From Mobula hypostoma (taxonomy: Eukaryota): a DNA stretch of 64,000 nt. Below are positions 1,412 through 58,600 of the stretch, piece after piece. A program made the translations under genes and the position numbers. The stretch covers positions 34,102,001-34,166,000 of the forward strand of contig NC_086097.1 in the NCBI RefSeq assembly GCF_963921235.1. The letters are read 5' to 3'. The notes under the pieces are model-generated. The model saw nothing but the letters and a program-made list of their open reading frames with translations. It was not told where the DNA came from and did no database searches. Within the stretch, counting starts at the first letter, position 1; each line of letters begins with the position of its first letter.

Positions 1412-1856
1412 TTAGAAACATAGAACATAGAAATCTACAGCAGATTACAGGCCCTTCGGCCCACAATGTTGTGCCGACCATGTAACCTACTCTAAAAGCT
1501 GCCTAGAATTACCCTACCGCATAGCGCTCTATTGTTCTAAGCTCCATGTACCTATCTAAGAGTCTCTTAAAAGATCCTATTTTATCTGCCTCCACTACTG
1601 TGAAGGCAGTGCTTTGCACACACCCATCACTCACTGTGTGAAAAACTTACCTCTGACATTCCCCTTGTATCTACTTCCAAGCACCTTAAAATTATGCCCC
1701 CTCGTGTTAGCCATTTCAACCCTGGGAAAAGCCTCTGACTATCCACACGATCAATGCCTCCCATCATCTTATACAGCTCTATCAGGTCACCTCTCATCCT
1801 CCGTCACTGCAAAGAGTACAGTCAACCTATTTTCATAAGGGATGCTCCCCAATCCA
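1412..1856 (-). mobile_element. CR1 LINE 3' fragment
   Basis: Tail AGAAACATAGAACATAGAA followed by ACAGGCCCTTCGGCCCACAATGTTGTGCCG, the same 3' end as the CR1 copies at 19200 and 61946. Confidence 0.85.
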
Positions 1857-1929
1857 TTTTATCCCTCTATGACTTGTTCAGCCTTACATTCTCAATATCT
1901 CTGTGAATATTTCAGATTTCCAATATTTT

Positions 1930-2295
1930 CCGAGAGCAAGGAGCGACCCGAGATCTGGACGATTTAAGCGATCAGGCCAGATTGAAATGGTCGGGGAGTC
2001 GGGGTCAGAGGTGAGAGATGGGCTGGTTCGGCTTGCTGCTCTGCGGGGTTTGCTCAAATCTGTGCTGTGTCCTGCAACTAGTGGACGTCCGGATTGGCTG
2101 CATTGACGCCTGATGTTGTGAACTTCAGTTCTGAATGCTGTTTGCATGACTTGTTTTCTTTTCCCCCTTCCTCTCTGCACACTGGGTTTTGACTTAATGG
2201 GTTCTATTGCGGTCCTTTGTTTTGTGACTGCCTGTAAGGAGACCATTCTCAAGGTTGTATAAAGTATAAAGAGTACTTTGAACTCTGAACTTTTC
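1930..2295 (+). mobile_element. Short non-coding retroposon with Rex-type tail
   Basis: Ends in CTCAAGGTTGTAT...TACTTTGAACTCTGAAC; similar 3' ends occur near 26850, 50890, 54010 and 61195. Confidence 0.5.
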
Positions 2296-2809
2296 AACTT
2301 CATGTAAAACCCTAGCAATCCAAAATAGTTCACTGTGCCAGGTATATTCATGTCACACTAGTAGAAAGTAATGACCATAAACAACAAGGATAATTTTGAT
2401 CTCTTCATGTAATGCTATCATTCTCATTAAACTTCTCTTAATTCATGTGGTTATGGAATGTGGCCATGCTGCTATTCACTGTCCATTTCTAAATGGCTGG
2501 ACTGAGGAAGAAGTTGCGCATCACAGATCGATCAGACTGAAAAAGGATGGCAGATTTCCTTCCCTTCTGTTTACATAAACCTATTACCAATATTAGCAAT
2601 TTCTATTCTAGGTGTATTTAATTATCAAAATTTTATTCCTATTGATAGGATAAAATTCAAATCCATAAACCTGACCAGTAATTTAAACCCAAGTCCTGAA
2701 CCATCAATATCCTTGGGAACTCTTAGATACTGCAGGTACTGGGGGAGGTTAGGGGCGGGGTGTTCTATGGAAGGTGGCTCACTTTCTGACTCCACAAAAT
2801 CTCCTCATC

Positions 2810-3638
2810 ATTTACCTAGCAGCAGTGCGGCTGGGCACGGCTCAAATGTCATCTTTAAATTCGCCAGTGACACCATTGTTGATGGCAGAATCTCAGGAGG
2901 TGACGAGGAGCCGTGCAGTAGTGAGATAGATCCGCCTGTTGAGTGGTGTCTCGGCAACAACCTTGCACCCGATGTCAGTACTGACTGTGGACTGCAGGAA
3001 GGGGAAGTTCGGAGAACTCACATCAGTCCTCATTGAGGTGGAAAGGGTGAGGATCTTCAAATTCCTGGTCTCAATATCTTGGGAGGATCTTTCCTGGGGC
3101 CATGATGTGATCATGGAGAAGTCATGTCAGCAGACATACATCATGATTTTGAGGGGATTTGGTATGTCAGCAAAGGTTCTATCAAATTTCTACAGATTAA
3201 TTGTGGAGAGCATTCTGACTGGTTGCATCTCCATTTCGAGTGGGGGCTCCAATACACAGTATCAAAAGAGGCTGTAGAGGGCTGGCGTCTCGGCCAGCTC
3301 TATAGTGGGTACTAGCCTTCCTACCATCAAGAACATTTTCCAAAGGCCATGCCTCGAGAAGGCAACGTCCATCATTAAGGACCCTCACCATCTGGGACAT
3401 GCCCTCTTCTCATTACTACCATCAAGCTTGAAGACATACACTCGTCATTTTAGGAACAGCTTTTTTTCTGAATAGTCTATAAATCATGAACACTACCTCT
3501 TTATTCCTCTTTTTCACCATTTACTTTATTTTTTGTAGGAAGTCAATTAGTAATTTTTTAATGTCTTGCACTATCCTTTTGCCACAAAAAATACATTTTG
3601 CGACATATGTCGGTGATAATAAACCTGATTCTGATTCA
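2810..3638 (+). mobile_element. Rex1/Babar LINE 3' remnant (RT C-terminus + tail)
   Basis: Translates to SNVIFKFASDTIVDGRISGGDE (degenerate KFADDT motif) and NFYRLIVESILTGCI; ends TAATAAACCTGATTCTGATTC. Confidence 0.8.
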
Positions 3639-4033
3639 TAATGTAAATGAATTTATTTATACTGGACTGTATTGGTACAGCTGCACAATGCTAAAGAAGT
3701 GTGACACCATCAATGCCCCAGGAGCCATTCTGATCAACAGAACGAACAACAGCTAAACATTCACCATTTCCAATGCGGGAATCAGTATAATGCCACTTTC
3801 TCAATGGTAAATAGGAATGGTTAACAGTGATGCCTCCTTCTGATCAAGAAGAAAATAACTAATCTAAGTATACACCAATGCTGCTTTTAATTTTAACTGT
3901 TCCTTTGGTAAATAAGGGAATTGGCCTCATTCTTTCCTAAGTTTATTTTTAAATACATCTCCCAGTGGAGCAATGCACAAATAAACACACTAGGCTCAAC
4001 CAACTCACAGGGGACAAAAGGGGTTGCAATATA

Positions 4034-4350
4034 CGAGGGGTGATTGATAGGTTTGTGGCCTAAGGTAGAAGGAGTCAATTTTAGAAAACCTATCACATTT
4101 ATTTTTCAACATAGTCCCCTCCTACATTTACACACTTAGTCCAGCGGTCGTAGAGCATACGGATCCCTTCTTTGTAGAAGTCGGTGTCTTGGACCTCCAG
4201 AAAGTGGTCCACAACAGGGGTAATTGATAAGTTCGTGGCCTAAGGTAGAAGGAGATGAGTTATACAGCCCTCGTTACAAGCACATGCAGTTCAACTCTCT
4301 GAGTGATTATGCAGAAAGTTTGAAGTTAATAACTCATCTCCTTCTACCTC
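4034..4350. mobile_element. Mariner-like non-autonomous element, one end truncated
   Basis: TA|CGAGGGGTGATTGATAGG start; internal direct repeat GTGGCCTAAGGTAGAAGGAG (~4054 and ~4234); partial inverted copy CTCATCTCCTTCTACCT near 4333-4349. Confidence 0.6.
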
Positions 4351-4404
4351 CTTCTGGTAGTGACTAGGAGCAACAGCAGGAAGGAAACAGGAAGACTTCT
4401 TCGA

Positions 4405-4730
4405 TGATTGTCATCGGGTTGTGGTGGAGAGGCTTGTGAGTTCTTGCGATCCTTAGAGTGATGCCGTCTGGAGCATAGCTCCTGGTAGGGTCACTCATGC
4501 TGGTAAAATCAAAGGGGAGGTTCTGGACAAAGTGTGATCCAACAAAGACCTCAAGCTGGTGGAAGATCCTAACACATCTCCACGGCAGTGAAGGTGGAGG
4601 AAGGCTGCAACGGTGAGGGGTCCCCAGTCATCTTGCATTCCATGCCACGGGAAACTGACCCTGATCGGTCAAGGACTGTGTGTTGCTGCCCGTGCATCAG
4701 CTTCCCTACGTTAAACAAAGCCATGCACAG
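4405..4730 (+). mobile_element. RTE-clade LINE 5' end-like fragment
   Basis: GTTGTGGTGGAGAGGCTTGTGAG...GATCCTTAGAGTGATGCCGTC...CTGGTAGGGTCACTCATG resembles the RTE/Expander 5' UTR as I recall it. Confidence 0.4.
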
Positions 4731-5439
4731 ATTAAGGGAATAACCCCTTGGGAGAACATCATACTTGGCACGAGTGATCACACTAATTAAACAGGAAGAG
4801 TCACATCTTTGGCACCATGTACTGCATCTCCTTAACTTTAAATCGTAATGCAGTAGTGTAGCAGCCTGAATCTCATTTAGGAGTATTGCATAATATTTAG
4901 AGATACCAGAAGAGAACTTCAGACAAATGGCGTCCTTTATAATCACAGGCACTTAAACATTTTCTCTATTCTCCAAATACATTTACCACACTAAGCTGTA
5001 TTAAGATCTGCACATTATATCAATATGTGCCACATCTAACACTGAACATATTGTTCCCCAAGAGGGTCTGGGATTTAGTGCAGTCTTTTCTGTTTTTACT
5101 TCTGCAAGTGTACAACATGTCTGCATTTCTGAAACACTTCTATCAGAGCCCTCTTTAAAAGTGCTGCATGAACTGAATTGTATAATGTGCAGCTTACGTT
5201 TGTAAGTTTTGGGTCAGCCATGGAATAAAATTATCAGTTTGGCAATTTTCTAAAATTACTTCAAATAATGATCAATAAAATGATTTGTATTTCCAAAGAG
5301 AGTGATTGGTTAAATGACTGTCAGTGTTCTTCTTAATCACAAAATTCCCAAATGGTTCTCTGGCGTTCCTCACAGTCATTTCTCATTTTCTTGTTTGTAC
5401 TTTTTGGTTTTTTCTGGGGGGTACCTCTTGCCCATCCTC

Positions 5440-5752
5440 TGGGTCACCCCCCCCGTCTTTCTTCCCGGACCTCCTGTCCCATGATCCTCTCGTATCCCCT
5501 TCTGCCTATCACCTGTCCAGCTCTCGGCTCCATCCCTCCCCCTCCTGTCTTCTCCTATCATTTTGCATCTCCCCCTCCCCCTCCAGCTTTCAAATCCCTT
5601 ACTCACTCTTCCTTCAGTTAGTCCTGACGAAGGGTCTCGGCCTGAAACGTCGACTGCGCCTCTTCCTATAGATGCTGCCTGGCCTGCTGCGTTCACCAGC
5701 AACTTTGATGTATGTTGCTTGAATTTCCAGCATCTGCAGAATTCCTGTTGTT
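5440..5752 (+). mobile_element. Penelope-like element terminal (pLTR) fragment
   Basis: Pyrimidine-rich tract, hammerhead motif, then GATGCTGCCTGGCCTGCTG...TTTCCAGCATCTGCAG. This is the same terminus attached to the GIY-YIG-bearing fragment at 40745-41675. Confidence 0.8.
5620..5655 (+). ncRNA. Minimal type I hammerhead ribozyme motif
   Basis: AGTC-CTGACGA-AGG GTCTCGG CCT-GAAAC-GTC-GACT: intact CUGAnGA and GAAA boxes, GUC triplet, stem I AGTC/GACT, loopless palindromic stem III ACGT. Confidence 0.75.
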
Positions 5753-15090: not shown

Positions 15091-15897
15091 AATTGGTGAC
15101 AAATAGGAACCTGAATGTCAGAGAATATCACCAACTGCACCGACAGTTATTAGATCACAGACTTCGGAGGAAGGGAAAGAGACAGTGGGAGGAAAGGGTT
15201 AAACAGTATGGAGTAGGCCGTCACGGACGCTAACAAAGGGACGTGTGGGTAATAGTGCACAGTGTACAGTGAGAGACGCACAACCAGCAATGTTAAAGTG
15301 AAAATAACGTTACGATGGCCTTAGTTGATGAATTTGATAGTGCTAATGAGGACTGGGGATCGTATACTGAGAGGGTTGAACTGTAGTGTAACATGAACAA
15401 TGTGGATGAGAAAAAGAAAACCTCTTGGCTTAATGGGTGCTAGAACATACAGGCTCTTATGCAACCTAGTAACTCCTGAAAAGCCAGCAAGACATTTGAT
15501 GAAATTGTTACAATTATACAAAATCATCTGAGCCCTAAACCGCTGGCAATAGCTGAGAGATCTAGATTTCACAAAAGGTACCAGTCAAGGATGGGAGCAT
15601 TTCTAAATACATTGCAGAAGTGCACAAGCTTTCCCAATACCGTGACTTCAGAGATAGACTTTCTGATGCCTTAAGGGATGGGCTTGTATGTGGCATGGAT
15701 AGTCAAAGCACTCAAAAGGGGCTACTGTTGGAAAGAGACCTAACCTTAGAATGGGCATTAATCATCGCAGTATCGTTAGGGACTGCAGCAAAGGATGCAT
15801 CAGAACTACAGGAAAAGAGTTTAGAATGTGAAATGCACAAAATGTCCCAGAATGGTGCAAAAAGTCAAATCTTCCTGTGATGCAAATGACTATTGGT

Positions 15898-16440: not shown

Positions 16441-17055
16441 AAGAAAAAGTTTGCAGCAAGTGTCACAGACAAGGCCAACACAGAGAAAGCATGCAAGTCA
16501 GACAAAAAGACAGACAACCATAGAGAAAAACCGCACAGAGTGAAAAGTTTCAAACGCAGACAGTAGGCAAAGAATGGTTTTAGACGGGTCATATTCTGCA
16601 TGGAGGCCGGTGACCAGTGGTGTGCCTCAGGGATCTGTTCTGGGACCCCTACTCTTTGTGATTTTTATATATGACCTGGATGAGGAAGTAGAGGGATGGG
16701 TTAGTAAATTTGCTGATGACACAAAGGTTGAGGGTCTTGTGGATAGTGTGGAGGGCTGTCAGAGGTTACAATGGGACATTGATAGGATGCAAAACTGGGC
16801 TGAGAAGTGGCAGATGGAGTTTAACCCAGATAAGTGTGAGGTGGTTCATTTTAGTAGGTCAAATATGATGGCAGAATATAGCAGTAATGGTAAGACTCTT
16901 GGCAGTGTGGAGGATCAGAGGGATTTTGGGGTCAGAGTCCATAGGACACTCAAAGCTGTACTCAGGTTGACTCTGCGGTTAAGAAGGCATATGGTGCACT
17001 GCCCTTCATCAGTCATGGGATTGAGTTTAAGAGTCCAGAGGTAATGTTGCAACTA

Positions 17056-18694
17056 CAGTTGAAGTCAGAAGTTTACAAACACCTTAGCCAAATACATTTA
17101 AACTCAGTTTTTCACAATTCCTGACATTTAATCCTAGAAAACATTCCCTGTCTTAGGTCAGTTAGGATCACTACTCTATTTTAAGAATGTGAAATGTCAG
17201 AATAATAGTAGAGAGAATGATTTATTTCAGCTTTTATTTCTTTCATCACTTTCCCAGTGGGTCAGAAGTTTACATACACTTTGTTAATATTTGGTAGCGT
17301 TGCCTTTAAATTGTTTAACTTGGGTCAAACGTTTTGTGTTGCCTTCCACAAGCTTCTCACAGTAAGTTGCTGGAATTTTGTTCCATTCCTCCAGACAGAA
17401 CTGGTGTAACTGAGTCATGTTTGTAGGCCTCCTTGCTCGCACATGCTTTTTCAATTCTGCCCACAAATTTTCCATCGGATTGAGGTTGGGGCTGTGTGAT
17501 GGCCATTCCAATACCTTAACTTTGTTGTCCTTAAGCAATTTTGCCACAACTTTGGAGGTATGCTTGGGGTCATTGTCCATTTGGAAGATCCATTTGCAAC
17601 CAAGTTTTAATTTCCTGTCTGATTTCTTGAGATGTTGCTTCAATATATCCACATTATTTTCCTTCCTCATGATGCCATCTATTTTGTGAAGTGCTCCAGT
17701 ACTTCCTGCAGCAAAACACCCCCACAACATGATGCTGTCTCCCCCATGCTTCACGGCTGGGGTGGTGTTCTTTGGCTTGCAAGCCTCACCCGTTTTCCTC
17801 CAAACATAACGATGGTCATTATGGCCAAACAGTTCAATTTTTGTTTCATCAGACCAGAGGACATTTCTCCAAGAAGTAAGATCTTTGTCTCCATGTGCAC
17901 TTGCAAACTGTAGTTTGGCTTTTTTATGGCAGTTTTGGAGCAGTGGCTTCTTCCTTGCTGAGCAGCCTTTCAGGTTATGTCGATATAGGACTCGTTTTAC
18001 TGTGGATATAGATACTTCCCTAACTGTTTCCTCCAGCATCTTCACAAGGTCCTTTGCTGTTGTTCTGGGATTGATTTGCACTTTTCGCGCCAAAGTACGT
18101 TCATCTCTAGGAGACAGAATGCGTCTCCTTCCTGAGCGGTATGACGGCTGCATGGTCCCATGGTGTTTATACTCGCGTACTATTGTTTGTACAGATGAAC
18201 ATGGTACCTTCAGGTGTTTGGAAATTGCTCCCAAGCATGAACCAGACTCGACATCATTTCCTGACCTCAATCTGATAGAAAATGTGTGGGCAGAGCTGAA
18301 AAAGCGTGTGCGTGCAAGGAGGCCTACAAACATGACTCAGTTACACCAGTTCTGTCTGGAGGAATGGAACAAAATTCCAGCAACTTACTGTGAGAAGCTT
18401 GTGGAAGGCAATCCAAAACATTTGATCCAAGTTAAACAATTTAAAGGCAACGCTACCAAATACTAACAAAGTGTATGTAAACTTCTGACCCACTGGGAAA
18501 GTGATGAAAGAAATAAAAGCTGAAATAAATCATTCTCTCTACTATTATTCTGACATTTCACATTCTTAAAATAAAGTAGTGATCCTAACTGACCTAAGAC
18601 AGGGAATGTTTTCTAGGATTAAATGTCAGGAATTGTGAAAAATTGAGTTTAAATGTATTTGGCTAAGGTGTATGTAAACTTCTGACTTCAACTG
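17056..18694 (-). mobile_element. Sleeping Beauty-subfamily Tc1 element with two right arms
   Basis: TA|CAGTTGAAGTCAGAAGTTTACA...TGTAAACTTCTGACTTCAACTG|TA; inner DR GTCAGAAGTTTACATACAC; the inverted repeats 17056-17490 and 18260-18694 both include the transposase 3' end. Confidence 0.95.
17284..18333 (-). CDS. Tc1 DD34E transposase ORF, 349 aa, with a replaced N-terminus
   Basis: Uninterrupted ORF with GRRR linker, WSDETK and MDND...34 aa...E, ending KGNATKY. The first 29 aa derive from the antisense strand of the duplicated arm plus filler. Expression unknown. Confidence 0.8.
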   Translation of the reverse strand: MFVGLLARTRFFSSAHTFSIRLRSGNDVESGSCLGAISKHLKVPCSSVQTIVREYKHHGTMQPSYRSGRRRILSPRDERTLARKVQINPRTTAKDLVKMLEETVREVSISTVKRVLYRHNLKGCSARKKPLLQNCHKKAKLQFASAHGDKDLTSWRNVLWSDETKIELFGHNDHRYVWRKTGEACKPKNTTPAVKHGGDSIMLWGCFAAGSTGALHKIDGIMRKENNVDILKQHLKKSDRKLKLGCKWIFQMDNDPKHTSKVVAKLLKDNKVKVLEWPSHSPNLNPMENLWAELKKHVRARRPTNMTQLHQFCLEEWNKIPATYCEKLVEGNTKRLTQVKQFKGNATKY

Positions 18695-21600
18695 TATATC
18701 GGACCCTGGTCAGACCCCACTTGGAGTACTGTGCTCAATTCTGGTTGCCTCACTACAGGAAGGACATGGAAACCATAGAAAGGGTGCAGAGGAGATTTAC
18801 AAGGATGTTGCCTGGATTGGGGAGCATGTCTTATGAGTTATAGGTAGAGTGAACTCGGCCTTTTCTCCTTGGAGCGATGGAGGATGAGAGGTGACCTGAT
18901 AGAGGTGTTCAAGATAATGAAAGCCATTGATCATGTGGATAGTGAGGCTTTTTCCCAGAGCTGAAATGGCTAGCACGAGAGGGCATAGTTTTAAGGTGTT
19001 TGGAAGTAGGTACAGAGGAGATATCAGGGGTAAGTATTTTTACCCAGAGAGTGGTGAGTACGTGGAATGGGCTGCCGGTGGCGGCAGTGGAGGTGGAAGT
19101 GATAGGGTCTTTTTAGAGACTCCTGGATGGACACATGGAGCTTAGAAAAATAGAGGGCTATGCGTAAAGCCCAGGTAGTTCTAAGGTAAGGACATGTTCG
19201 GCACAGTTTTGTGGGCCGAAGGGCCTGTATTGTGCTGTAGGTTTTTATATGTTTCTATGTTTTTCTATGTTTCTATGTCTCACAAAACTAAATAAATCCA
19301 CAAAGTGACTGAATCTGAAAGTGAATCTGACAACACAGAGTCTGACAAAGGCCTAAAACTGCATAGCATTACTGAAGCAGGTTGCAAAATCATATGGATC
19401 ACAATAGCCATGTCTGGTGTAAAACTGAAAGTAGAGCTGGATACAGGATCGGCTTTGCTTGTAATTTCTGAGACAGACTACAACAGACTGTTTTCTAAGC
19501 TACCATAAGAAAAGACTTCCGTGACACTAAAGACCTATGGAGGTGAGAAGGTGTCTTCGAAAGGCAAACTCTCAGTGAATATGATGTGTGGAGGCAAAAG
19601 ACAGCAGTTAGTGCTTTCTGTGCTGAAAAGCAGAGGGCCAGCACTTTTTGGATGTAAATGGTTGAGAAAAATTCAACTAGACTGGCACACTATCAAAGCT
19701 CTCCGTCTGGCATCAACCAGCAACTGCAGTTCCAATGGCTACCCTAACCAGAGATTATCACAGCTGCTTAATCCTGCTGAGAAGGTGTTTAAGAAGGGTA
19801 TTGGTAAACTCAAAATTGAACTGGATGAAGCAACAACACCAAGATCCATGAAGCATGTCAGTGCCTTATGCACTATGTTCTAAGGTGGATGCTGAACTTT
19901 AGAGCTTGGAGGTATCTGGAATTCTCACTAAGCTTGTGTGGAGCGATTGGGCCACGCCCATTGTCCCAGTGATCAGAAAAGGGAAGGTCAGAGCTCTTCA
20001 CATATGTGGGCACTCCAAAATGAGCATCAACCCTGCACAGTATCCCCTGTCACAAACAGAAGACATCTTTGCATCTTTGGCAGACGGGGAGAGGATTTCA
20101 AAGATTGACTTGTCACAAGCCTAACTGCAAATGGAGATCGAGGAGTCAAGCAGGAAGTTCCTCAAAATCAACACTCACAAGGGACTGTTCCAGTATAACC
20201 ATCTTGTCTTTGGCGTCACATCAGCTCCAGCAATTTGGTGAAAAAGTAATGAATCAAGTGCTCCAAGGTATCCCAGGAATACAATATTATCTTGATGACA
20301 TCATCGTGACGGGCAAAGAAGTGATGAAGAGCATCTCCATTTCCTTGGTAAACTGCTTACTAGGCTGAGTGAGCATGGCCTGAGCACAAAGAGAGAGAAC
20401 TGAGATTTTCAAGAATGAAATCTCATATTGTAGACATGTCATTGACAAGCGTGGCTTACATAAGACACAAGAGAAGATTGAAGCAGTGCTACAGGCACCC
20501 AAACCAGAAAATCAGTCACAACTCAGGTCATACGTGAGCCTTGTAAACTACTACCACCAGTTTCTCTCAAACATTGCTACAGCACTGCATCCATTGAATG
20601 CACTGTTACAAACAGGAGCAAAGTGGGAATAGTTAGAAAGATGTAAAAGAGCATTCGAGGAAACAAGGACTGATAGTATCAAATGAACTACTCATCTATT
20701 ATGACTCACCCTGCCCATCAGACTGGTGTGCGATGATTCCCCTTATGGCATTGGAGCTGTTTTGTCACACATTATGAAAGATGGATCTGAATGTCTTTGC
20801 TTCAAGTCACTGATGAGTGCAGAGTACAACTATTCAGAGATTGACCGAGTGGCCCTCAGTTTACTATGGGGAATAAAGAAGTTCCACCACTACCTCTACG
20901 GACAAACGTTTACACAAATGACAGATCACCAGCCCCTTGTGTACATTTTCAAGGGAAGGGAATCCCTGTGAAGTCTGCTACCTGGTTGCAATGTTGGGCA
21001 CTTTTTCTAGGAGCCCACTCTTATGACATAGAGTTCAAGGGTACCAAACAACACAGCAAAGCTGACGGCTTGTCACATTTTCCGCTATCAGCAATTGAAG
21101 AAGAAAAGTCCTCATACTGTGACCCAGCAGAAGTGTTCCACACAGCATTGGTGGACCATTTGCTAGTAACAAATTCTGAAATACAAAGAAAAACAAGGAA
21201 TGACGCGACAATGTCAAAAGTCTATGACATCACCATGGCCAGCTCATGGTAACCCTATGTTTCCAGAGTTCTCAGCGAGACGAGACCAACTGTCAGTATG
21301 CCAAAGAACACTGATGTGTGGATCTCACGTTGTGGCGCCCTCTAAACTGCACACCAGAGTGTTAGAGAATCTGCATGAAGGACACGTGGGTACAGTTAGG
21401 GTGGAGAGTCTTGCCAGGAGCTACATGTGGTGGCTGGGAATAGATAAACAGATTGGAGGCTTGACCAAGAACTGTTTAGGATGCCACAAAGTTCAAAACG
21501 CACCCCCACAGGCACTGTCACACCTGTGGGAGTGGCTGTCTTCACCAAGGCAAAGAGTACGTATTGACTTTGCTGGGCTATTCATGTTTCTGATTGCTGT

Positions 21601-22587
21601 GGATTGCTGTGGATGCTCATTCAAAGTGGCCTGGGGTCATACCACTGAAGCGAACCGCATCTGAAAAGACAGCTTCTGCTCTGAGAATTACCTTCACCAG
21701 AAATGGCTTATCAAAACAAATTGAATGACAGCAGACCACAATACACGTCAGAAGAGTTTAGACTATTGATGAAGAAAAACGGCATCAGACATTTCAAGCC
21801 AGCTCCTCACCACCCAGCAACGAATGGGTAGCTGAAAGTTTTGTCCAAACCTTCAGGAAGTCCACTAAAGCAATGGACAAAGAGGGCATATCTCTATAGC
21901 ACAAAATGGACAACTTCCTTTTAGTGTATCAGACCTCTGTTCATGCGACAACAAATCAAACACCTCCAATGCTGTTCATGAGCAGGAATCTGAGATCTCG
22001 CATAGACCTCCTGAAACCAGATCTATGGAGGGAAGTACAGAATAAACAATTCAGCCAGTTGCCAAGTGAATCAGCGAGATGCTTCAAGATTGGACAGGAA
22101 GTCCTAGCGTGTGATTACCGAGAAGACAAGTGGACACCCAGTAGGACAGCTACAAGAACTGGACCACTGATCTACGCAGTGGATGTTGGCGATCAGACAC
22201 GGGGACGTCATGTGAACCAGATACTGGATGTTCAACTGAAGAATACACCTGAATTGACTGGTTACCATTAAGCTGGACTCATTACAGCTACTGGAGTTAC
22301 CTCTCAGTAATGATCATGTCACTAACAGCAATGTGACACCTACAACAGAGAAAGTTGTCTTTGACACCACACCTGCCCAACCAGATGCCACTCCACAGGT
22401 CCAAAGGTTTTATCCTGAAAGAAATAGAGCAGCACCCAAAAGACTGAATCTTTAGTATAGTGAAGTTAGTTATGGACTGTTATTGTGAAAGCATGTTTAT
22501 TTGAATATAGGTTGTTAAAGGGAAATGTAATATTTTGTTACATACTGTATACAGTTTTATGTTTTGTTAATCTAAAGGGAGCGGAAG

Positions 22588-25115: not shown

Positions 25116-25661
25116 CAGTACTGTGCAAAATTCTTAGACATATATATATATATACTGTATATAGCTGGGGTGGTCAGACTTTTGCACAGCACTGTATTTG
25201 TCAACGTGGAGTGAAGAGTGCGTTTGTAAATCCAGCAGGAGCAAAGTCTGTTGGGAATGGCGAGGGTGGAGTGCTGCGGGAGAGGTGTGGGACAGGTGGC
25301 AGAGAAGGAGTGCCAGGGCCGGGGGGGGGGGGCGGTGGCCTGAGACACCGAGCAAGGTCACCTGATTCCAAACAATTGGCTTATTGGTCAATACAGGATG
25401 TCTCTTTGGTGCTTCACAGTCCAAACCCTCTCCCTTCCCCTTTCCCCAGTCATGATTCTCCTCTCCCTGCCCCCTTCTCATTCTCAGTCCACAACAGAGA
25501 CCCACATTAAAATCAGGTTTATCATCACTCACATAGATCATGGTTTTTCTTTGTGGCAGCAGTACAATGCAATACATAAAATTACTATATTACTGTGCAA
25601 AAGTCTTAGGCACCCTAGCTATATATACTGTATCTGTGACTAAGACTTTTGCACAGTACTC
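25116..25661. mobile_element. Tc1-like non-autonomous composite with palindromic termini
   Basis: TA|CAGTACTGTGCAAAA...TTTTGCACAGCACTG|TA (25116-25194) and an inverted counterpart at 25588-25661. Confidence 0.65.
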
Positions 25662-26253
25662 TAGGCCATATACTTAGATCACTTTTTTCTATAAATCACC
25701 TTCTACAGAAATGGATTTGTGGCTACTAACAGCTCTGCTATGTTGCCACACCTTTTTTTTTGTTGGTGTGAGTGCTTAAGAAACAAAACATTGTCAGCTT
25801 GCAGCTTTTACTAAGGCTGCTCCTCTGTGTTTAATAGGCTTCTACCTGTAAAATGATGGAGGGCTTCCTATTGTAAAGCAGTATTTCCAGCTTATTCCAA
25901 TGTGCGTCACCATTTCATTAGTTCCCTAGAGTTTGCTTATGTATGAAAAACAGAAGCAATCGTGTACAAACATAGGTCTTCAGTTCTTTCTTTTGCTATC
26001 ATCTCAGTAATAGATACGACCTTTACTGGGGTTAGGTGAACTTCGCCTGCTATGCATGCCCTTCTGAAGATTGGGCATTCTTTCTCCTTCATGCTGCATT
26101 TGTCTGTATTTCAAAGTTAAAGTCAAAGTAGTTTTATATTTAAAGTACATATATGTCACCATACATTACCTTGAGATTCATTTTCTTGTAGGCATTTACA
26201 GGAAAATAAAGAAATACAATAGAATTTATGAAGAACTATTTAAGTAAACACAA

Positions 26254-26533
26254 CAAAATCTGCAGATGCTGGAAATCCAAGCAACACACACAAAATGCTG
26301 GAGGAACTCAGCAGGTCAGGCAGCATCTATGGAAACAAGTAAACAATCAATGTTATGAGCCAAGACCCTTCATCGGGACTGGAAAGGAAGAAGGAAGTAT
26401 ATAAACAAAGGGTCCTGACGAAGGGTTCCGGCCCGAAACGTCGACCGATCTTTTCCACGAATGCTGCCCGACCTGCTGAGTTCCTCCAGCGTGTTGTGAG
26501 TGTTGCATTGACCCCAGCATCTGCAGATTATTT
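26254..26533. mobile_element. Palindromic Penelope-terminus derivative
   Basis: AATCTGCAGATGCTGG...GGAGGAACTCAGCAGGTC on the left is mirrored by GACCTGCTGAGTTCCTCC...CCAGCATCTGCAGATT on the right. Confidence 0.8.
26411..26446 (+). ncRNA. Minimal type I hammerhead ribozyme motif
   Basis: GGTC-CTGACGA-A-GGG TTCCGG CCC-GAAAC-GTC-GACC; all core positions intact. Confidence 0.78.
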
Positions 26534-27639
26534 TGTGTTTATATAAACAAAGAACTGTCAAACAGCCAATTTACAGAAGAAGACAAATTATGTGAATGTT
26601 TTAAAATAAATAATAAATTTAGATTGAGCCTAAATTTAGTTTGAACTGTACTGAAATATGCCTCTTGTGTTTTATATTCTGTGTTTTCCATCTTTTTTTT
26701 TTGTTACTGTTGCACGTGGAGGGACGGGGTTTGATGTTTGTTGTTTTTCTTTGAATGGGTTCCACCGCTCTTTGTTTCGTGACTTTCTGTGGGGAAGATG
26801 AAATTCAGGCCTGTATACTGCAGACATGTTTTGATCATAAAGGAACTTTGAACATTTCCACTTCTTTCTATCAACTGATAGGGATGACATCTGTGGCCTT
26901 TATGATCTGCTCTGGAGATCTGAATGTCAGTTCCTATGCCAGCTGTCACCTTGCATCCTCCACAAGTCTCACCTGCTTTCTGCTGAAGAATCTCTGAAGG
27001 TCAAAATGTAAACAACAGATCTTGCAACATCCAAGTGGTGTTTAAGGATCTTGTCAACAGTACGGAATCTCATCGAGCTTCATAATCCAGTCCTTGTTCT
27101 TAGCACCAAGCGTGCTGAAAACTTTGGTGTCTGACAATGCCAGCATTATTTCTTCCTCTGTTGGAGCTGAGGAGTAGTTCCTCTTCATTACACATCTTCA
27201 GCAAATCATGAGGCTTCTCGCTCACTGCAATCAAGTTCACCCATCAGTGGGTTTAATGGTTTTGCCCTTTCTGCCTCATCTTTAGAGAATAGTTGTGGAA
27301 CATTGAGTAAACTACAGTACCATAATCTAGAGCACAAAAGTTTCTGCAGATGCACTATAATCTGGAAGTCTAATCTAACAATCTAGAGTTCAAATTTCAC
27401 TATGGTAGCCGTGTCAACTAAATTCAGTGAATAACTTGGAACAGCATCTACTCATGAATATCCTCCTAGGATTTGGTCTAGTTGTACTTCTAGAGACAGC
27501 TCATGTCGTCTAAAATGTCCTAGAAAGTCACTCAGCTATCATCAACACATTCCCCTTCCCCATCTCATTAGACTGCTTTCATATCCAGATCTGTCAAAAT
27601 CAAGCTATGAATGTAATCAATGACTGAGCAATCACTGTC

Positions 27640-34425: not shown

Positions 34426-35065
34426 CAGTGCGCGTGGCCTCTCCAGTGAAATGATATCGTATTTATTAAATAGGGGCTGTGCACAATTCTGATTTGATGG
34501 AGACAGACATGAGAAGCACAGAGGAACACCTGGAGAAACTTCTGAAATGCCCGGTTCGCTGCCGCTGCTACTGTGCGATCGAGAATCTCCAGAGGGAAGG
34601 TCCCAAATCCTCGGCTTTGCCTGTTGCTGGCGGCCGGGGCTGGAGTCGAAGTGCTCGGCAGAGATGGTGCTCGGTGTTCGGTGTCGGAGGCTCGAAGTTT
34701 TCGGACGACTCAGAGTCGGACTGTGGTCAGGTGCTTCCAGGATGCTGCATCGGCAAGTTTGCGGCACTGGAAGCTCATGGCGGGGAGAGTTTTCTTCCTT
34801 CTCCCGTCTGTGAGAGATGGTGGGACTTTCGAGAGACTTTGAACTTTTTTTACCGTACCCGTGGCCTGTTCTTCATCAAGTTACGGTATTGCTTGCACTG
34901 TTGTAACTATACGTTATAATTATGTGGTTTTTGTCAGTTTTCAGTGTTGGTCTATCTTGTGTTTCTGTGATACCACGCTGCAGGAACATTGTATCATTTC
35001 TTAATGCATGCATTACTAAATGACAATAAAAGAGGACTACGTGTCCTCATAATCTAATCTAATCT
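34426..35065 (+). mobile_element. (AATCT)n-tailed retroposon, copy 1, slightly 5'-truncated
   Basis: Aligns along its length with copies 2-4; ends AATAAAA GAGGAC-TACGT-GTCCTC AT(AATCT)3. Confidence 0.85.
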
Positions 35066-36069
35066 AGTTTACACATCCTTTGGTCTGATCCTAAGGTCCT
35101 TCACTTGTCTTGTTGTACACTGCAATTTATTTTTCTGTCACCACACTGCACCAAACTCCTTTTAATCCTTTAATCTCTCCTGCCTTCGACCCTATCACAA
35201 ACCTTTCCTTCCTTTGCATCGTAAACCATATTTTTTTTAATCTCCAACTTTTTCCAATCCTCATAAAAGGTCATCAGACAGAAACTTCAGTTCTATTTAT
35301 CTTCCTATGAAAGAGAGACCACTGAGGATTTCTAGTGATGTAGGAAACATGTATCTATTTTCAGTCTGTATTGTATGTTATGGTATGTTTATTATGGTAA
35401 CTTGTCATGTGGGTTGGGTCGTGGTAGAAGCAAATAAGTATTCTCACTTTGTCTAAGCCAGGTCATTTTAGTCTAGTTGAATGAGGTTGAGAAATTGAGA
35501 TTTTTTTTTGTTGACTGCTAAACTTCACTTAGTTACGCCAATTGGAATGCTTATTTCATTATTATGTTAATTCTGTTCTGTCATTAATTTTGTTTTGTTA
35601 GTTTTTTTATTGCTACAAAATCATTCATCTTTGCTGGTTTCATATTAAGGGGATGGAATGTACTTCCCTCAATTGGGAAATTGTTATTTGGAAAAGCGTC
35701 ACACAGAGTCGATGACCCTGGCTTAGTCCCTCAGCAGTTTTGGTTTGTTTTCTAGTACTTTCTTATTTTATTCTTGTTTGTTACCTGATGCTAATTGGCA
35801 GCTGTAATAACTCATTTGGGGCACAAATATTCCATTCAGGGAAGTTGTAATGAACTCCAGAGAAGCAGCAAAGACTTCATCAGTGAAATATACTCTACTT
35901 AATAATAAGTTCAACTGATCCATTATGGGAGGCAAACAACAATAAAGTTCATAAGCCCTCCTGGTGAAGTCTATAATGCAAGTAATCACCTTTGCACGCA
36001 TATGTTTTTTCACTTCTAGAAGTAAAAGAAGAACCCTAAGATCCAACAATATTGCAAGCAGATATTTCC

Positions 36070-48585: not shown

Positions 48586-49223
48586 ATTAGATTAGATTAG
48601 ATTAGATTATGAGGACATGCAGTCCTCTTTTATTGTCATTTAGTAATGCATGCATTAAGAAACGATACAATATTCCTCCGGTGTGATATCACAGAAACAC
48701 AGGACAGACCAAGACTGAAAAACTAACAAAAACCACATAATTATAACATACAGTTACAACAGCGCAACAATACCATAACTTGATGAAGAACAGGCCATGG
48801 CACAGTAAAAAAGTTCAAAGTCTCTCGAATGTCCCACATCTCACGCAGACAGGAGAAGGAAGAAAACTCTCCCTGCCATGCCCGACCACAGTCTGACTCT
48901 AAGTCATCCGAAAACTTCGAGCCTCCGATCAGCCCTCTGACACCGAGTACCGAGCACCATCTCTATCTGAGCGCTTCGACCTCAGCCTCAGTCGCCAGCA
49001 GCAGGCAAAGCCGGGGATTTTGGGGCCTTCCCTCCGGAAGATTCTCGATCGCACGATAACAGCGGCAGCGAACCGGCATTACAGAAATTTCTCCAGATGT
49101 TCCTCTGTGCTTTCACGTCTGTCTCCATCAAATCAGAATTGTCCTCAGCCCCTATTTAACAGATACGATACCATTTCACCGGAGAGCTGTGCGCGCTGCG
49201 TCGCACTGCCATCTTCTCCTCCC
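48586..49223 (-). mobile_element. (AATCT)n-tailed retroposon, copy 2
   Basis: (ATTAG)n ATTATGAGGACATGCAGTCCTC...GCCATCTTCTCCTCCC. Confidence 0.88.
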
Positions 49224-52769: not shown

Positions 52770-54015
52770 ATGCACAATGGAGAGTATCCTGGCTGGTTGT
52801 ATCATGGCCTGGTGTGGAAACACCAGTGCCCAGGAATGGGAAAGCCTACAAAAAGAAGTGGATATAGCCCAGCCCAGTCCTGAACAGGTAAAGCCCTCCC
52901 CACCAATGAGCACATCTCATTGGGGGAGAAGATGGCGACACGACGCAGCGCACACGGCCATTCCGAATTGATATCGATATGTGTTAACTAGGGGGCTGTG
53001 CACAATCCTGATTTGATGGAGACAGCCATGAGAAGCACAGAGGAACACCTGGAGAAACTTATGAAATGCCCGCTTCGCTGCCGCTACTACTGTGCGATCA
53101 ATAATCTCCGGAGGGGAAGGCCTCAAATCCTTGGCTTTGCCTATTGCCTGTTGCCGGGGCCAGGGTCGAAGCGTTTGGCAGGGATGGTGCTCAGTGCTCT
53201 GTGTCAGAGAGCTGGTCGGAGGCTCGGAGTTTTCGGACGGACTCAGAGTTGGACTGTGGTCGGGTGCTTCCAGGATGCTGCATCGGCAAGTTTGGGGTGC
53301 TGGAGGTTCACCGTCTGTGCGAGATGATGGGACTTCCGAGAGACTTTGAGTCTTTTACCGTGTCCATGGTCTGTTCATATCAAATTATGGTATTGCTTTG
53401 CACTGTTGTAACTATATGTTATAATTTTGTGGTTTTTGTCAGTTTTTAAAGCCAGTTTGTCATGTGTTTCTGTGATATCATTTTGGAAAAACATTGTATC
53501 ATTTCTTAACGCATGTATTACTAAATGACAATAAAAGAGGACTGCATGTCCTCATAATCTAATCTACAAGGAGCGCCGCCACAAGAAAGCAGCATCCAGT
53601 ATCAAAGACCCCTATCATCTAGGTCATGCTCTCTTCTCACTGCTGCCGTCGGGAAGGTAGGTACAGGAGTCCCACACCACCGGGCTCAGGAACAGTTATT
53701 ACCCCTCAGCCACTGGGCTGCTGAACCAGTAACTTCACTCACCTCAACTCTGAACTGATTTCACAGCCTACAGACTCATTTTCAAAGATCCCACTACTCA
53801 TGTTCTCAGTGTGTTTCATTTACTTATTGATTGATTGATCGGATTTGCACAGTTTGTTTTCTTTTGCGCACCGGCTGCTTGTCAGTCTCTGTGAGTAGTT
53901 TTTCATTGATTCTATCGTATTCCTTTGTGAATGCTTGCAAGAAAATGAATCTCAAGAGTAGTATAAGGTGGCACATGCCTATGCACAGTAGTTTGGTAAT
54001 AAGTTTACTTTGAAT
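52770..54015 (+). mobile_element. Rex1/Babar 3' remnant split by copy 3
   Basis: RCTMESILAGCIMAWCGNT...GAGCACATCT|ACAAGGAGCG...; tail AATAAGTTTACTTTGAA. Confidence 0.8.
52918..53565 (+). mobile_element. (AATCT)n-tailed retroposon, copy 3
   Basis: GGGGGAGAAGATGGCG head; GAGGAC-TGCAT-GTCCTC AT(AATCT)2 end. Confidence 0.88.
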
Positions 54016-54265: not shown

Positions 54266-54284
54266 ATAGTCATTCCATAATATA

Positions 54285-55283
54285 CAGTGGCATGTAAAAG
54301 CTTGGGCACCCCGGTCAAAATTTCTGTTACTGTGAATAGCTAAGCGAGTAAAAGATGAACTGATTTCCAAAAGGCATAAAGTTAAAGATGACACATTTCT
54401 TTAATATTTTAAGCAGGAAAACTTTTTTATTTTAATCTTTTACAGTTTCAAAATAACAAAAAAAGTTCTATTCAAAAGGTTCAAAGGAACATCTAAACAA
54501 GCCTGATGCATTTTGGACTGTGGACTGATGAAGGTAAAATAGAACTTTTTGGCCGCAATGAGCAAAGGTATGTTTGGAGAAAAAAGGGTGCAGAGTTTCA
54601 TGAAAAGAACACCTCTCCAACTGTTAAGCACTGGGGGGGATCGATCATGCTTTGGGCTTGTGTTGCAGCCAGTGGCACGGGGAACATTTCACTGGTAGAG
54701 GAAAGAATGAATTCAATTAAATTCTGGAAGCAAACATCACACCATCTGTAAAAAAGCCGAAGATGGCTTCTACAACAGGATAATGAACCTAAACACACCT
54801 GAAAATCCACAATGGACTACCTCAAGAGGCCGCAGGCTGAAGGTTTTGTCATGGCCCTCACAGTCCCCTGATCATTGAGAATCTGTGGATAGACCTCGAA
54901 AGAGCAGTGCATGCAAGACAGCCCTAGAATCTCACAGAACTAGAAGCCTTTTGCAAGGAAGAATGGGTGAAAATCCCCCAAACAAGAATTGAAAGACTCT
55001 TAGCTGGCTACAAAAAGCGCTTACAAGCTGTGATACTTGCCAAAAGGGGTGTTACTAAGTACTGCCATGCAGGATGCCTAAACTTTTGCTTCGGGCCCTT
55101 TTCCTTTTTTGTTATTTTGAAACTAAGAGATGGAAATAAAAAAGTTTTTTTTGTTTAAAATATTGAAGAAATGTGTCATCTTTAACTTTATGTCTTTTGG
55201 AAATCAGTTCATCTTTTACTCACTTAGCTATTCACAGTAACAGAAATTTTGACTAGGGGTGCCCAGACTCTTGCATGCCACTG
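54285..55283 (+). mobile_element. Internally deleted Tc1 element (second family)
   Basis: TA|CAGTGGCATG...CATGCCACTG with ~180-bp TIRs; WTDEGKIELFG, TVKHWGGSIMLW, QDNEPKH; N-terminal half missing, frameshifts present. Confidence 0.9.
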
Positions 55284-57109
55284 TTTTAAATCTCCACCAA
55301 TGCACAGGGAGTTGTAGGACAGAAGGAAACAGTCACCGTTTCCTTTATTCTGAATCAATATTTCGTTTGTAGTCACATAAGCCAATCAGTATTAACCTTA
55401 CCAGGAATAAAAACAGAAAATCAGAAGGACAGGCAGCATTTTCAGAGGGAGAAAGAGTTGATGTTTCAGGTCGACCGTGAAAAATTAGCATTGATTTTTC
55501 TTTTCAAAGATACTACCTGAATGTTGAGCGCTTTTTGCACAGTCTGTGTTTATTCCAGATTTCCAAGAGCTGCAGTATTTTGCTTTTTCATTACGACCTT
55601 ATCTAGGACTGGCAACTAAAGGGTGAAGGCCAGAGTTAAAGGTTCACAATCAGCCTGGATCCTGCAAGGCAATACTTTAATTGCAAAAGCAATACTCAAT
55701 ACAATGCCAAACTTGACCTAAAATCTAACGGTAAACTGAAGAAAGGACAACCTAAATAAAGTGTCACTGCTTATTAGAACTCCATTTTGACCTTAAAGCT
55801 TTTAACAGGAAAGTAAGTGCCATTCAAATAGTCAATTAAACCACTTGTAAACAGAATTTAATCAAAGCACCGCTCACTCTCTTTTGTAACTCTGAAAGGT
55901 GTAATTATAACTGCATTAACACAATGCATTACGGCAAACAATTAATGCTACTTTTGAAGGTTCTCAGCTTGATTACTACTAAAAATTTCAGATTTTAAAA
56001 AAATAACATAAATGCTCTAGGATCCTATAATTTTAAACATAGTAGGCTTAGAAATTCTCTTGCATAATTTAATACTCCTATGTGATGTGCAAAGGGAATC
56101 AATTGAAACTTTGATGGTTAAATGTCATGAGGTGATTTAGACTGTGGTTCCTGTAGTTTCCTCAGTTTGTTCTAAGATGTGTGTATATGTCATGGTACCT
56201 TTACTCAACAAGTGAGACCAGTTTTTCCAATATTTGAAGGAGGTCAACTGAACTTGCATGTGACTATGGAGTTTAGTCTATAAACGGAGTCTTTATTCCT
56301 ATCATATCTTCTCAATATGGGTGTCCATTGTGTTACTGTCAGAAGACCCTTATCCAAGTGCATCCTCCAGGTGTCCTGTCCGTTGTGGTCACAACCACCA
56401 CCCAACCCCAATTAATTCCCCGGCCCAAACCTGATTGCCCCTTCCCGGCTTGTGAAGGTCCTATTCACTGGGCCTCTCTGCCTAGCTGTTCAGACCCACA
56501 GTCTCCAAAATCCCCGTTACCCCTTACTACCTATAGGGCTCATACAGGAAAGGACTGTGTACACATTTGGATATGTAGTTGTCACTCCATTGAATCTTGC
56601 TGTGAGGGGACAACCCATAAAAAATAGGTTGGTTCCATGACCACAAAAGTTTAATTCACATTTTGAGAGGGAGAACAATGCCTAGGCCAAGCTGGTAGAA
56701 GTATAGTATAGCTCAAATACTTGGCAGCACATACAGCCCATAAAGCTCAATACTATGAAGAGGAAGTACACACATAATTCTCCATCATGCCACCCGCCAT
56801 GAGAGTAGGGGGCTGTGTTAGTGGCAGGATCAAGTGACAGGAACATTTAAGGAAAAAATAAGTTAATCAAATTAGGATCCTGTAAATTGTTTGAGACCTG
56901 GTCTCAACTTTTTTTGTATATACTTGACAGTTCTCTTATAAACTAAAAGGGGTCACTGTTCTGGTCTTTGGCAGATGCCATTTTGCTTGCTTTCTATTTA
57001 AGATCTATGCTTGCAGACATGCGCACTGAGTAGGTTTGACAAAAAGAAATAAATCTCTGAGAACAACAAAACTCACCCTTTACATTTGCTGCAATGTTAT
57101 AATCCAATG

Positions 57110-58600
57110 TCCAAAGTAAAATTTATTATCAGACTACATACACGCATCCACATACAACCCTGAGATTCTTTTTCCTGTGGGCACACTCAGCAAATCTATA
57201 GAATAGTAACTGTAAACAGGATCAATGAAAGAGCAAGAGCACAGAAGGCAACAACCTGTGCAAATGCAAATATATATAAATTGCAATAAATAACGCAAGC
57301 ATGAAATAGCAAGCTAAAGAGTCCTTAAAGTGAGTTCATTGGTTGTGGGAACTTCTCAATAGATGAGTTTAATTATCCTCTTTTGTTCAAGAGCCTGTTG
57401 GTTGAGGGGTAGTAACTGTTCTTGAACCTGGTGGTGTGAGTCCTGAGGCACCTGTGCCTTCTACCTGCTGGCAGCAGCGAGAAAAGAACATGACCTGCGT
57501 GGTGAGGATCTTTGTTGATGGATGCTGCTTTCCTATGACGGTGTTTCATGTCGATGTGCTCAGTGTTTGGGAGGGCTTTACCCATGATGTACTGGATGTA
57601 CTTTTTGTGGGATTTTCCATTTGAAGAGGAGAGGGGAGAAGATGGCGGCGCGACGCAGCGCGCAGCAGCCACTCCGGTGAATGATATCTGTTATCTGTCA
57701 AATAGGGTGCCGTGCACAATCCTGATTTGATGGAGACAGATGCGAGAGAACGGAGGAACATCTGGAGAAACTTCTGAAATGCCTGTTTCGCTGCCGTTGC
57801 TACTGTGTGATCCTGAATCTCCAGAGGGGAAGGCCCCGAGTCCTCGGCTTTGCTTGTTGCTCGGCGGCCGGGGCTGGGTCGAAGCACTCGGCAGAGATAG
57901 TGCTCGGTGCTCGATGTCAGAGGGCTGGTCGGAGGCTCGAAGTTTTCGGACAGACTCAGAGTCAGACTGTGGTCGGGTGCTTCCAGGGTGCTGCGTCGGC
58001 AAGTTTGCGGCGCTGGAGGTTCATGGCAGGGAGAGTTTTTCCCTTCTACCGTCTGCGTGACATGATGGGCTATCAGGACTTTGAGACTTTTTTTTTACCG
58101 TGCCCATGGTCTGTTCTTTATCAAATTACGGTATTGCTTTGCACTGTTGTAACCATATGTTATAATTATGTGTTTTTTGTCAGTTTAAGTCTCGGTCTGT
58201 TCTGTGTTTCTGTGATATTATTCTGGAGGAACATTGCATCATTTCTTAATGCATGCATTTCTAAATGACAATAAATGAGGACTGAGTGTCCTCATAATCT
58301 AATCTAAAAAAAAAACATTGGTGTTCCCTTACCAGGCCATAATGCAGCCAGTCAGCACACTTTCTACTGCACATCTATAAAAATTTGTTAAGGTTTTTGA
58401 TATCACACCAAATCTCCACAGACACCTGAGGAAGTAGAGGTGCTGTGGTGCTTTACTTGCAATTACATTTTCATAATGGGTGCAGGACAGGTCCTCTGAG
58501 ACAGTGACACACAGGAATTTAAAGTCACTGATCCTCTCCTTCTGTGATCCTCCAATGAGTACTGGCTCATGGATGTTTGGTTTCCTTCTCCCTCTCTTAT
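57110..58600 (-). mobile_element. Rex1/Babar 3' remnant split by copy 4
   Basis: FKFLCVTVSEDL, NFYRCAVESVLTGCIMAW, LPAGRRHRCLRTHTTRFKNSYYP. Confidence 0.82.
57627..58315 (+). mobile_element. (AATCT)n-tailed retroposon, copy 4
   Basis: GGGGAGAAGATGGCGGCG head; ATGAGGAC-TGAGT-GTCCTCAT (AATCT)2 followed by A10. Confidence 0.88.

Follow-up and report, generated by a model that had tools for sequence, protein, structure and literature searches.

The window analysed here, a 64,000-nt stretch of the Mobula hypostoma genome (NC_086097.1, 34,102,001 to 34,166,000, forward strand), contains at 17056-18694 a Tc1 element of 1639 bp, which in self-comparison of the window is bounded by TA dinucleotides. 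These form a TA target-site duplication (17054-17055 and 18695-18696) within a CR1-type LINE on the plus strand, whose 5′ part, with the RT domain, occupies 16593-17053 and whose 3′ part occupies 18697-19262. Removal of the element plus one TA leaves a site with a gap-free alignment to another, paralogous CR1 of the window, and the CR1 reading frame continues across the rejoined site; the clean TA flanks and exact rejoining of the host claimed in a sequence-only reading of this DNA are thereby borne out. A CR1 protein from the window has its top match in Hypanus sabinus (87%), followed by named Stegostoma and Mobula proteins. Degraded gag/pol pieces like those of LTR retrotransposons, recognized by eye in the translations, flank the CR1 at about 15560-15870 and 19300-22270. 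The nesting order suggested is Tc1 in CR1 in LTR element.

The ends of the Tc1 element are inverted arms (17054-17486 and 18264-18696) with 15 mismatches and no gaps over 433 bp. Both ends resemble the right IR of the canonical element L001, whose left IR is unmatched, and the two right arms in mirror image that had been read from the sequence are therefore real. Two canonical elements, L001 and L002, were recovered, each 1639 bp, and alignment to L001 carries the duplicated arm to 18260, in agreement with the 435 bp originally proposed for it. Each end has two DRs which, together with the TA duplication, give the IR/DR organization of the Sleeping Beauty (SB) family. The native right IR/DR is the outer part of arm 1 (17056-17287, minus strand), with its outer DR at 17056-17087 and its inner DR at about 17253-17287; a change private to this arm lies at 17078, in the outer DR core, and may have immobilized this copy. 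The transposase remnant (17284-18249, minus strand) retains canonical codons 20-340 plus the stop, with no indels. At the other end, an inverted duplicate of the 3′ arm (18261-18694, plus strand), comprising codons ∼273-340, the stop, and the right IR/DR, replaces canonical positions 1-260 (left IR/DR and the start of the UTR). Read in the transposase orientation, the inverted 3′ arm (431 bp) is followed by 15 bp (18263-18249) and then by codon 20 and the rest of the ORF. A gain of 431 bp is offset exactly by losses of 260 and 171 bp, and the rearranged element has exactly the canonical length (1639 bp, as for L001 at 1613-3251 and L002 at 32-1670); this exact match may be a matter of chance.

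About 11 bp at the join had been taken for filler, which they are not: the join holds a 15-bp remnant from the 5′ UTR that the element once carried (18249-18263, minus strand; canonical positions 261-275). In the transposase orientation this remnant shares 13 of its 15 bases with the UTR of both canonical elements, L001 and L002, a match equalled by 2 of 1000 shuffled cores. Both mismatches (18249 and 18260) belong to the window copy; a second organism, C, described below, has the UTR base at each. We rejected derivation of these bases from an inverted piece of the start-codon region, since the same-strand UTR matches better (13/15, versus at most 11/15 elsewhere in L001). The junction is two joins with no filler: the arm meets the remnant with 3 bp of microhomology, and the remnant meets the ORF with 2 bp of microhomology to codons 19-20, with 171 bp deleted after the remnant (canonical 276-446, i.e. 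the rest of the UTR, the start codon, and codons 1-19). At 18260, where the UTR base is found in organism C, the window copy has a base that adds one more position to the match between the arms; it is possibly another footprint of the arm conversion discussed below.

The ORF translation contains DDE_3 and HTH_Tnp_Tc3_2 domains (Pfam) and matches HTH_SB partially, only from position 20 of the 53 in the profile. It strongly matches the catalytic domain of SB100X (E = 9e-127) and is 83% identical over the alignment to P0002, a protein of the salmonid SB type to which the L001 protein is 99% identical; its DD34E signature is that of the SB family. The body plus native arm (17056-18248) differs from L001 at 75 of 1193 bp, without an indel (93.7% identity). 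The element thus resembles SB and other salmonid-type Tc1 elements in its IR/DR ends, TA duplication, DD34E triad, and DNA identity, but lacks the left IR, native start, and first 19 residues, and has an elasmobranch host. Alignment-based scans for related loci returned L001-L003 plus the distant loci L004-L005, while single-protein scans for related loci in genome and viral contigs found none. In Table 1 of PMC9777934 the SB family is listed only for ray-finned fishes and one mollusc, and our literature search, in which subscription journals are thinly covered, found no report of SB in elasmobranchs. Because such identity spans bony and cartilaginous fishes, we infer from the sequence comparison that an SB-family element likely entered an elasmobranch by horizontal transfer; if this holds, the locus is a record of an SB-family element in an elasmobranch. 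Table S1 of PMC9777934 lists SB TIRs of up to 415 bp, and a form similar to the window element may be among its entries. A partly Tc1-derived Mobula protein, P0075, has residues in common with the window transposase. It is a gene model named LACTB2 isoform X2 that consists mostly of sequence from the Tc1 family of the window element, either as an annotation artefact or through exonization.

Contigs from four of 24 listed sequencing runs were compared with window positions 17500-19300. Three of the runs are from organism C (X21 and X22 from one sample, X17 from another study), which carries both the host CR1 and the SB-type Tc1 family, and is probably a related species, since it contains only around half of the words sampled from the window; the control, X23, carries only the Tc1. 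In organism C, bridging contigs (counted from the variant table, with flanks unlinked) cover 18249 and 18260 in 22 and 24 cases for X21, 29 and 29 for X22, and 5 and 12 for X17, the junction positions lying up to 33-46 letters inside contig ends. Junction depth summed over contigs, which is not equivalent to copy number, reaches 3,800-5,600 in the DNA runs, as compared to 10-80 for most single contigs listed. In X23, depth at 18260 is 0, and the canonical sequence has loose ends exactly at 18248 and 18260. The arm/body depth ratio, which likewise does not measure copy number and is given little weight, is 3.4 in X21, 3.1 in X22, 0.95 in the control X23, and 1.1 in X17. These data point to multiple copies of the junction in organism C. 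Because the same junction occurs in many organism C contigs and is absent from the canonical-only control run, it is very probable that the symmetric form transposed as a whole, as the sequence-only reading had supposed. Within the window, the junction search retrieved only the copy at 17056-18694; in plasmids it found no match, and in metagenome contigs there were 0 matches to a pattern that fixed the window base at 18260 and would miss the organism C form. Junction coverage in X17 was considered as a sign of transcription and rejected, the RNA label of that run being a guess.

Relative to L001, nine changes are private to arm 1 and eight to arm 2 (counting two boundary sites), and 22 are shared. 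Comparison with organism C covers four of the 22 shared changes, among the variants listed: at 18332, 18410, and 18451 the L001 base makes up 88-100% of organism C depth, while at 18612 organism C agrees with the window. Because the junction is older than derived bases now found in both arms, copying from one arm to the other must have taken place in the window copy or an ancestor, judging from at least three derived bases common to both arms. Divergence between the arms is 3/231 in the IR and 12/202 in the coding part (p = 0.015); the IR is richer in AT and has fewer CpGs than the coding part. Our literature search, with its thin coverage of subscription journals, found no paper on arm conversion in Tc1 elements.

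An ORF of 349 aa (17284-18333, minus strand) joins 28 junction-derived residues to transposase residues 20-340. It is stop-free and has the equivalents of D153, D244, and E279 (the DD34E triad), as the sequence-only reading had described. Its in-frame ATG (18331-18333, minus strand) is indeed supplied by the antisense of the duplicated arm, but it is not a feature of the family: it depends on a derived base at 18332, which has its mirror image at 17418 in arm 1. At 18332 the canonical base (C) accounts for 99.8% (X21), 99.9% (X22), and 100% (X17) of organism C depth, and for 97.8% of depth in X23. The remainder in X21 (∼360) is far below the junction depth, and most junction copies therefore do not have the ATG. 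The ATG is a derived point change, limited to the window copy or to a small sub-lineage. Within the arm it is preceded by four out-of-frame ATGs, and in the predicted RNA fold it pairs with the ORF's own 3′ end.

Substitutions in the ORF show a neutral pattern. Against organism C, 24 coding sites (drawn from the 40 of 248 variants listed, and classed on L001 codons) divide into 15 nonsynonymous and nine synonymous, with 72% nonsynonymous expected under neutrality (p = 0.36); this count excludes site 18089, at which organism C largely shares the window base. Against L001, the ratio is 43:22 (p = 0.20-0.33). Of 41 amino-acid differences from the L001 protein, 12 fall at residues at least 90% conserved, as compared to a background of 37% of columns, conservation being scored on 50 full-length homologues of the 120 listed; six residues invariant in 50 of 50 homologues are altered (G95V, R131K, T184A, G190D, G202S, and Y323N). 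Under neutrality, 30-65 substitutions would leave the frame free of stops with a probability of 4-26%, disregarding indels, and the open frame is somewhat lucky but unremarkable. The ORF appears to be decaying neutrally, on the evidence of these sequence comparisons. With residues 1-19 lost, the PAI subdomain is incomplete. The SB promoter is located in the left IR/5′ UTR (PMC10138897), nearly all of which is gone from the rearranged element. Protein searches found no database protein with a junction-type N-terminus; one candidate, P0126, corresponds only to the 3′ arm read in antisense. Most likely the seemingly new protein arose by accident in the window copy, and the finding gives no new gene.

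We interpret the element as a non-autonomous derivative of an SB-family Tc1, with long TIRs and multiple copies, that moved in trans, a reading to which we assign a probability of about 80%. It would have had a single origin, perhaps in microhomology-mediated template switching during gap repair, or alternatively in a deletion between two opposed copies, as has been proposed for other elements (PMC4678618). The product would have kept two complete IR/DR ends, allowing the family transposase to move it in trans into many TA sites, including that of the host CR1. After this spread the derivative would have decayed neutrally, and at some stage conversion between the arms would have fixed three or more derived bases in both, one of which reads as an ATG in antisense. 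Such a derivative would yield no useful protein, and any transcript of it would be expected to fold back.

The architecture itself is already known from published precedents. In Rpmar49 of Rhodnius prolixus, 13 independent copies amplified from one progenitor carry 221 bp of the 3′ part in place of the 5′ part, and Rpmar17 of the same species has 227 such rearranged copies (PMC4678618). Both resemble the window element in having an inverted 3′ part in place of the 5′ part, long TIRs that contain transposase sequence, and a non-autonomous state, but they are simple-IR mariners, mostly below 1 kb, whereas the window element is a vertebrate IR/DR Tc1 (DD34E) that keeps the full canonical length and a UTR remnant at its join. 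As in Rpmar49, one end has been replaced by the inverted other end including coding sequence. Many organism C contigs, with unlinked flanks, have one breakpoint in common and may represent several independent insertions. Among Drosophila mariner MITE sublineages, seven mirror-image cases including Dromar7/11/28/36 are described in PMC4161770; they are similar in that one end is the inverted other end, with long TIRs and amplification in trans, but they have the opposite polarity (3′ replaced by 5′) and are shortened. The same paper calls the formation of such rearrangements elusive, and the resolved junction described here, with two microhomology joins around a UTR remnant, informs how they form. 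At 1639 bp and with 321 transposase codons, the window element is not a MITE in the strict sense (short, without coding remnant); with positions 1-260 absent, it also lacks the distinct left IR with enhancer and the 5′ UTR promoter of an autonomous SB element.

Other readings have to be weighed against this trans-mobilized derivative. The left end might have been overwritten in place after insertion of a canonical element, or an assembler might have mirrored one arm; in-register replacement from the end would likewise preserve the TA flanks, and the total length is the canonical 1639 bp. Such a one-off event or misassembly is nonetheless very unlikely, given that the arms differ at 15 sites, with private changes in each (9 and 8 against L001), and that the junction recurs in two organism C samples with ancestral bases at 18249 and 18260. 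The sequence-only reading had also suggested a binding-impaired, possibly inhibitory transposase. That the new ATG provides an N-terminally replaced protein inhibiting the family is in keeping with the open 349-aa frame, its DD34E triad, and the absence of indels in 1193 bp against L001, but we consider it hardly credible: the ATG is confined to the window copy or a small sub-lineage, the six invariant residues are altered, the four upstream ATGs are out of frame and the start lies within the stem, and the junction N-terminus is absent from database proteins. As a property of the form, such a protein lacks support: the ATG base is rare in organism C, substitutions are neutral and alter invariant residues, the promoter-bearing end is lost, and the start is predicted to fold into a stem with the 3′ end of the ORF.

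Compatible with the preferred reading of a derivative moved in trans, yet unlikely, is a role as a non-coding silencer of the family, in which transcripts, from read-through or driven from the ends, would form a hairpin of ∼430 bp, ∼200 bp of it transposase sequence, from which siRNAs or piRNAs would arise. A fold-back RNA with a coding stem of this size is structurally possible, the predicted structure for 17330-18420 being very stable (MFE −480 kcal/mol); the junction is present in multiple organism C contigs, and conversion between the arms would preserve pairing along the stem. On the other hand, the native promoter region is lost, and poly(A)-like hexamers on the sense strand (17238/17226) could shorten the stem. 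Our literature search, thin for subscription journals, found no paper on right-IR promoter activity. The fullest conjecture, of an enhancer-less, two-right-end SB derivative that spread in rays after transfer from bony fish, keeps its arms matched by conversion, and silences its own family through self-made small RNAs, is more doubtful still. Only through a silencing role, if true, would the finding have broad importance.

Two points sit uneasily with a derivative mobilized in trans: its stop-free frame has only that chance of about 4-26% under neutrality, ignoring indels, and a two-right-end form missing the SB left-IR enhancer is expected to serve less well as a substrate. In L001, only the left IR shows a half-DR-like motif, and we take this motif to be the enhancer. 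Two right ends are reportedly the weaker pair, a result attributed to Izsvak in 2002. The SB left IR bears a transposition enhancer and shortened SB substrates transpose poorly (PMC5224488), and SB performs best when its preferred end is present twice (PMC4505599). Yet a two-right-end IR/DR element without the left-end enhancer has apparently been amplified, which is mildly unexpected because of this enhancer and end preference. Our search of the literature, where coverage of subscription journals is thin, found no report of two-right-end SB elements in nature. If the interpretation holds, it extends a decay route of insect mariners to a vertebrate IR/DR element, and provides a natural test of the SB rule on the importance of the left-end enhancer.

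The window also contains a second, different Tc1 copy (54284-55285) of ∼1 kb, with ∼180-bp TIRs that are 90% alike; its transposase is without the 5′ part, and it is ∼75% alike to the first Tc1 over 154 bp. A ∼630-bp repeat is present in four copies, in both orientations and 78-85% alike (34437-35066, 48593-49222, 52922-53569, and 57633-58309), and self-comparison of the window reveals short self-inverted elements at 25585-25664 and 26239-26547.
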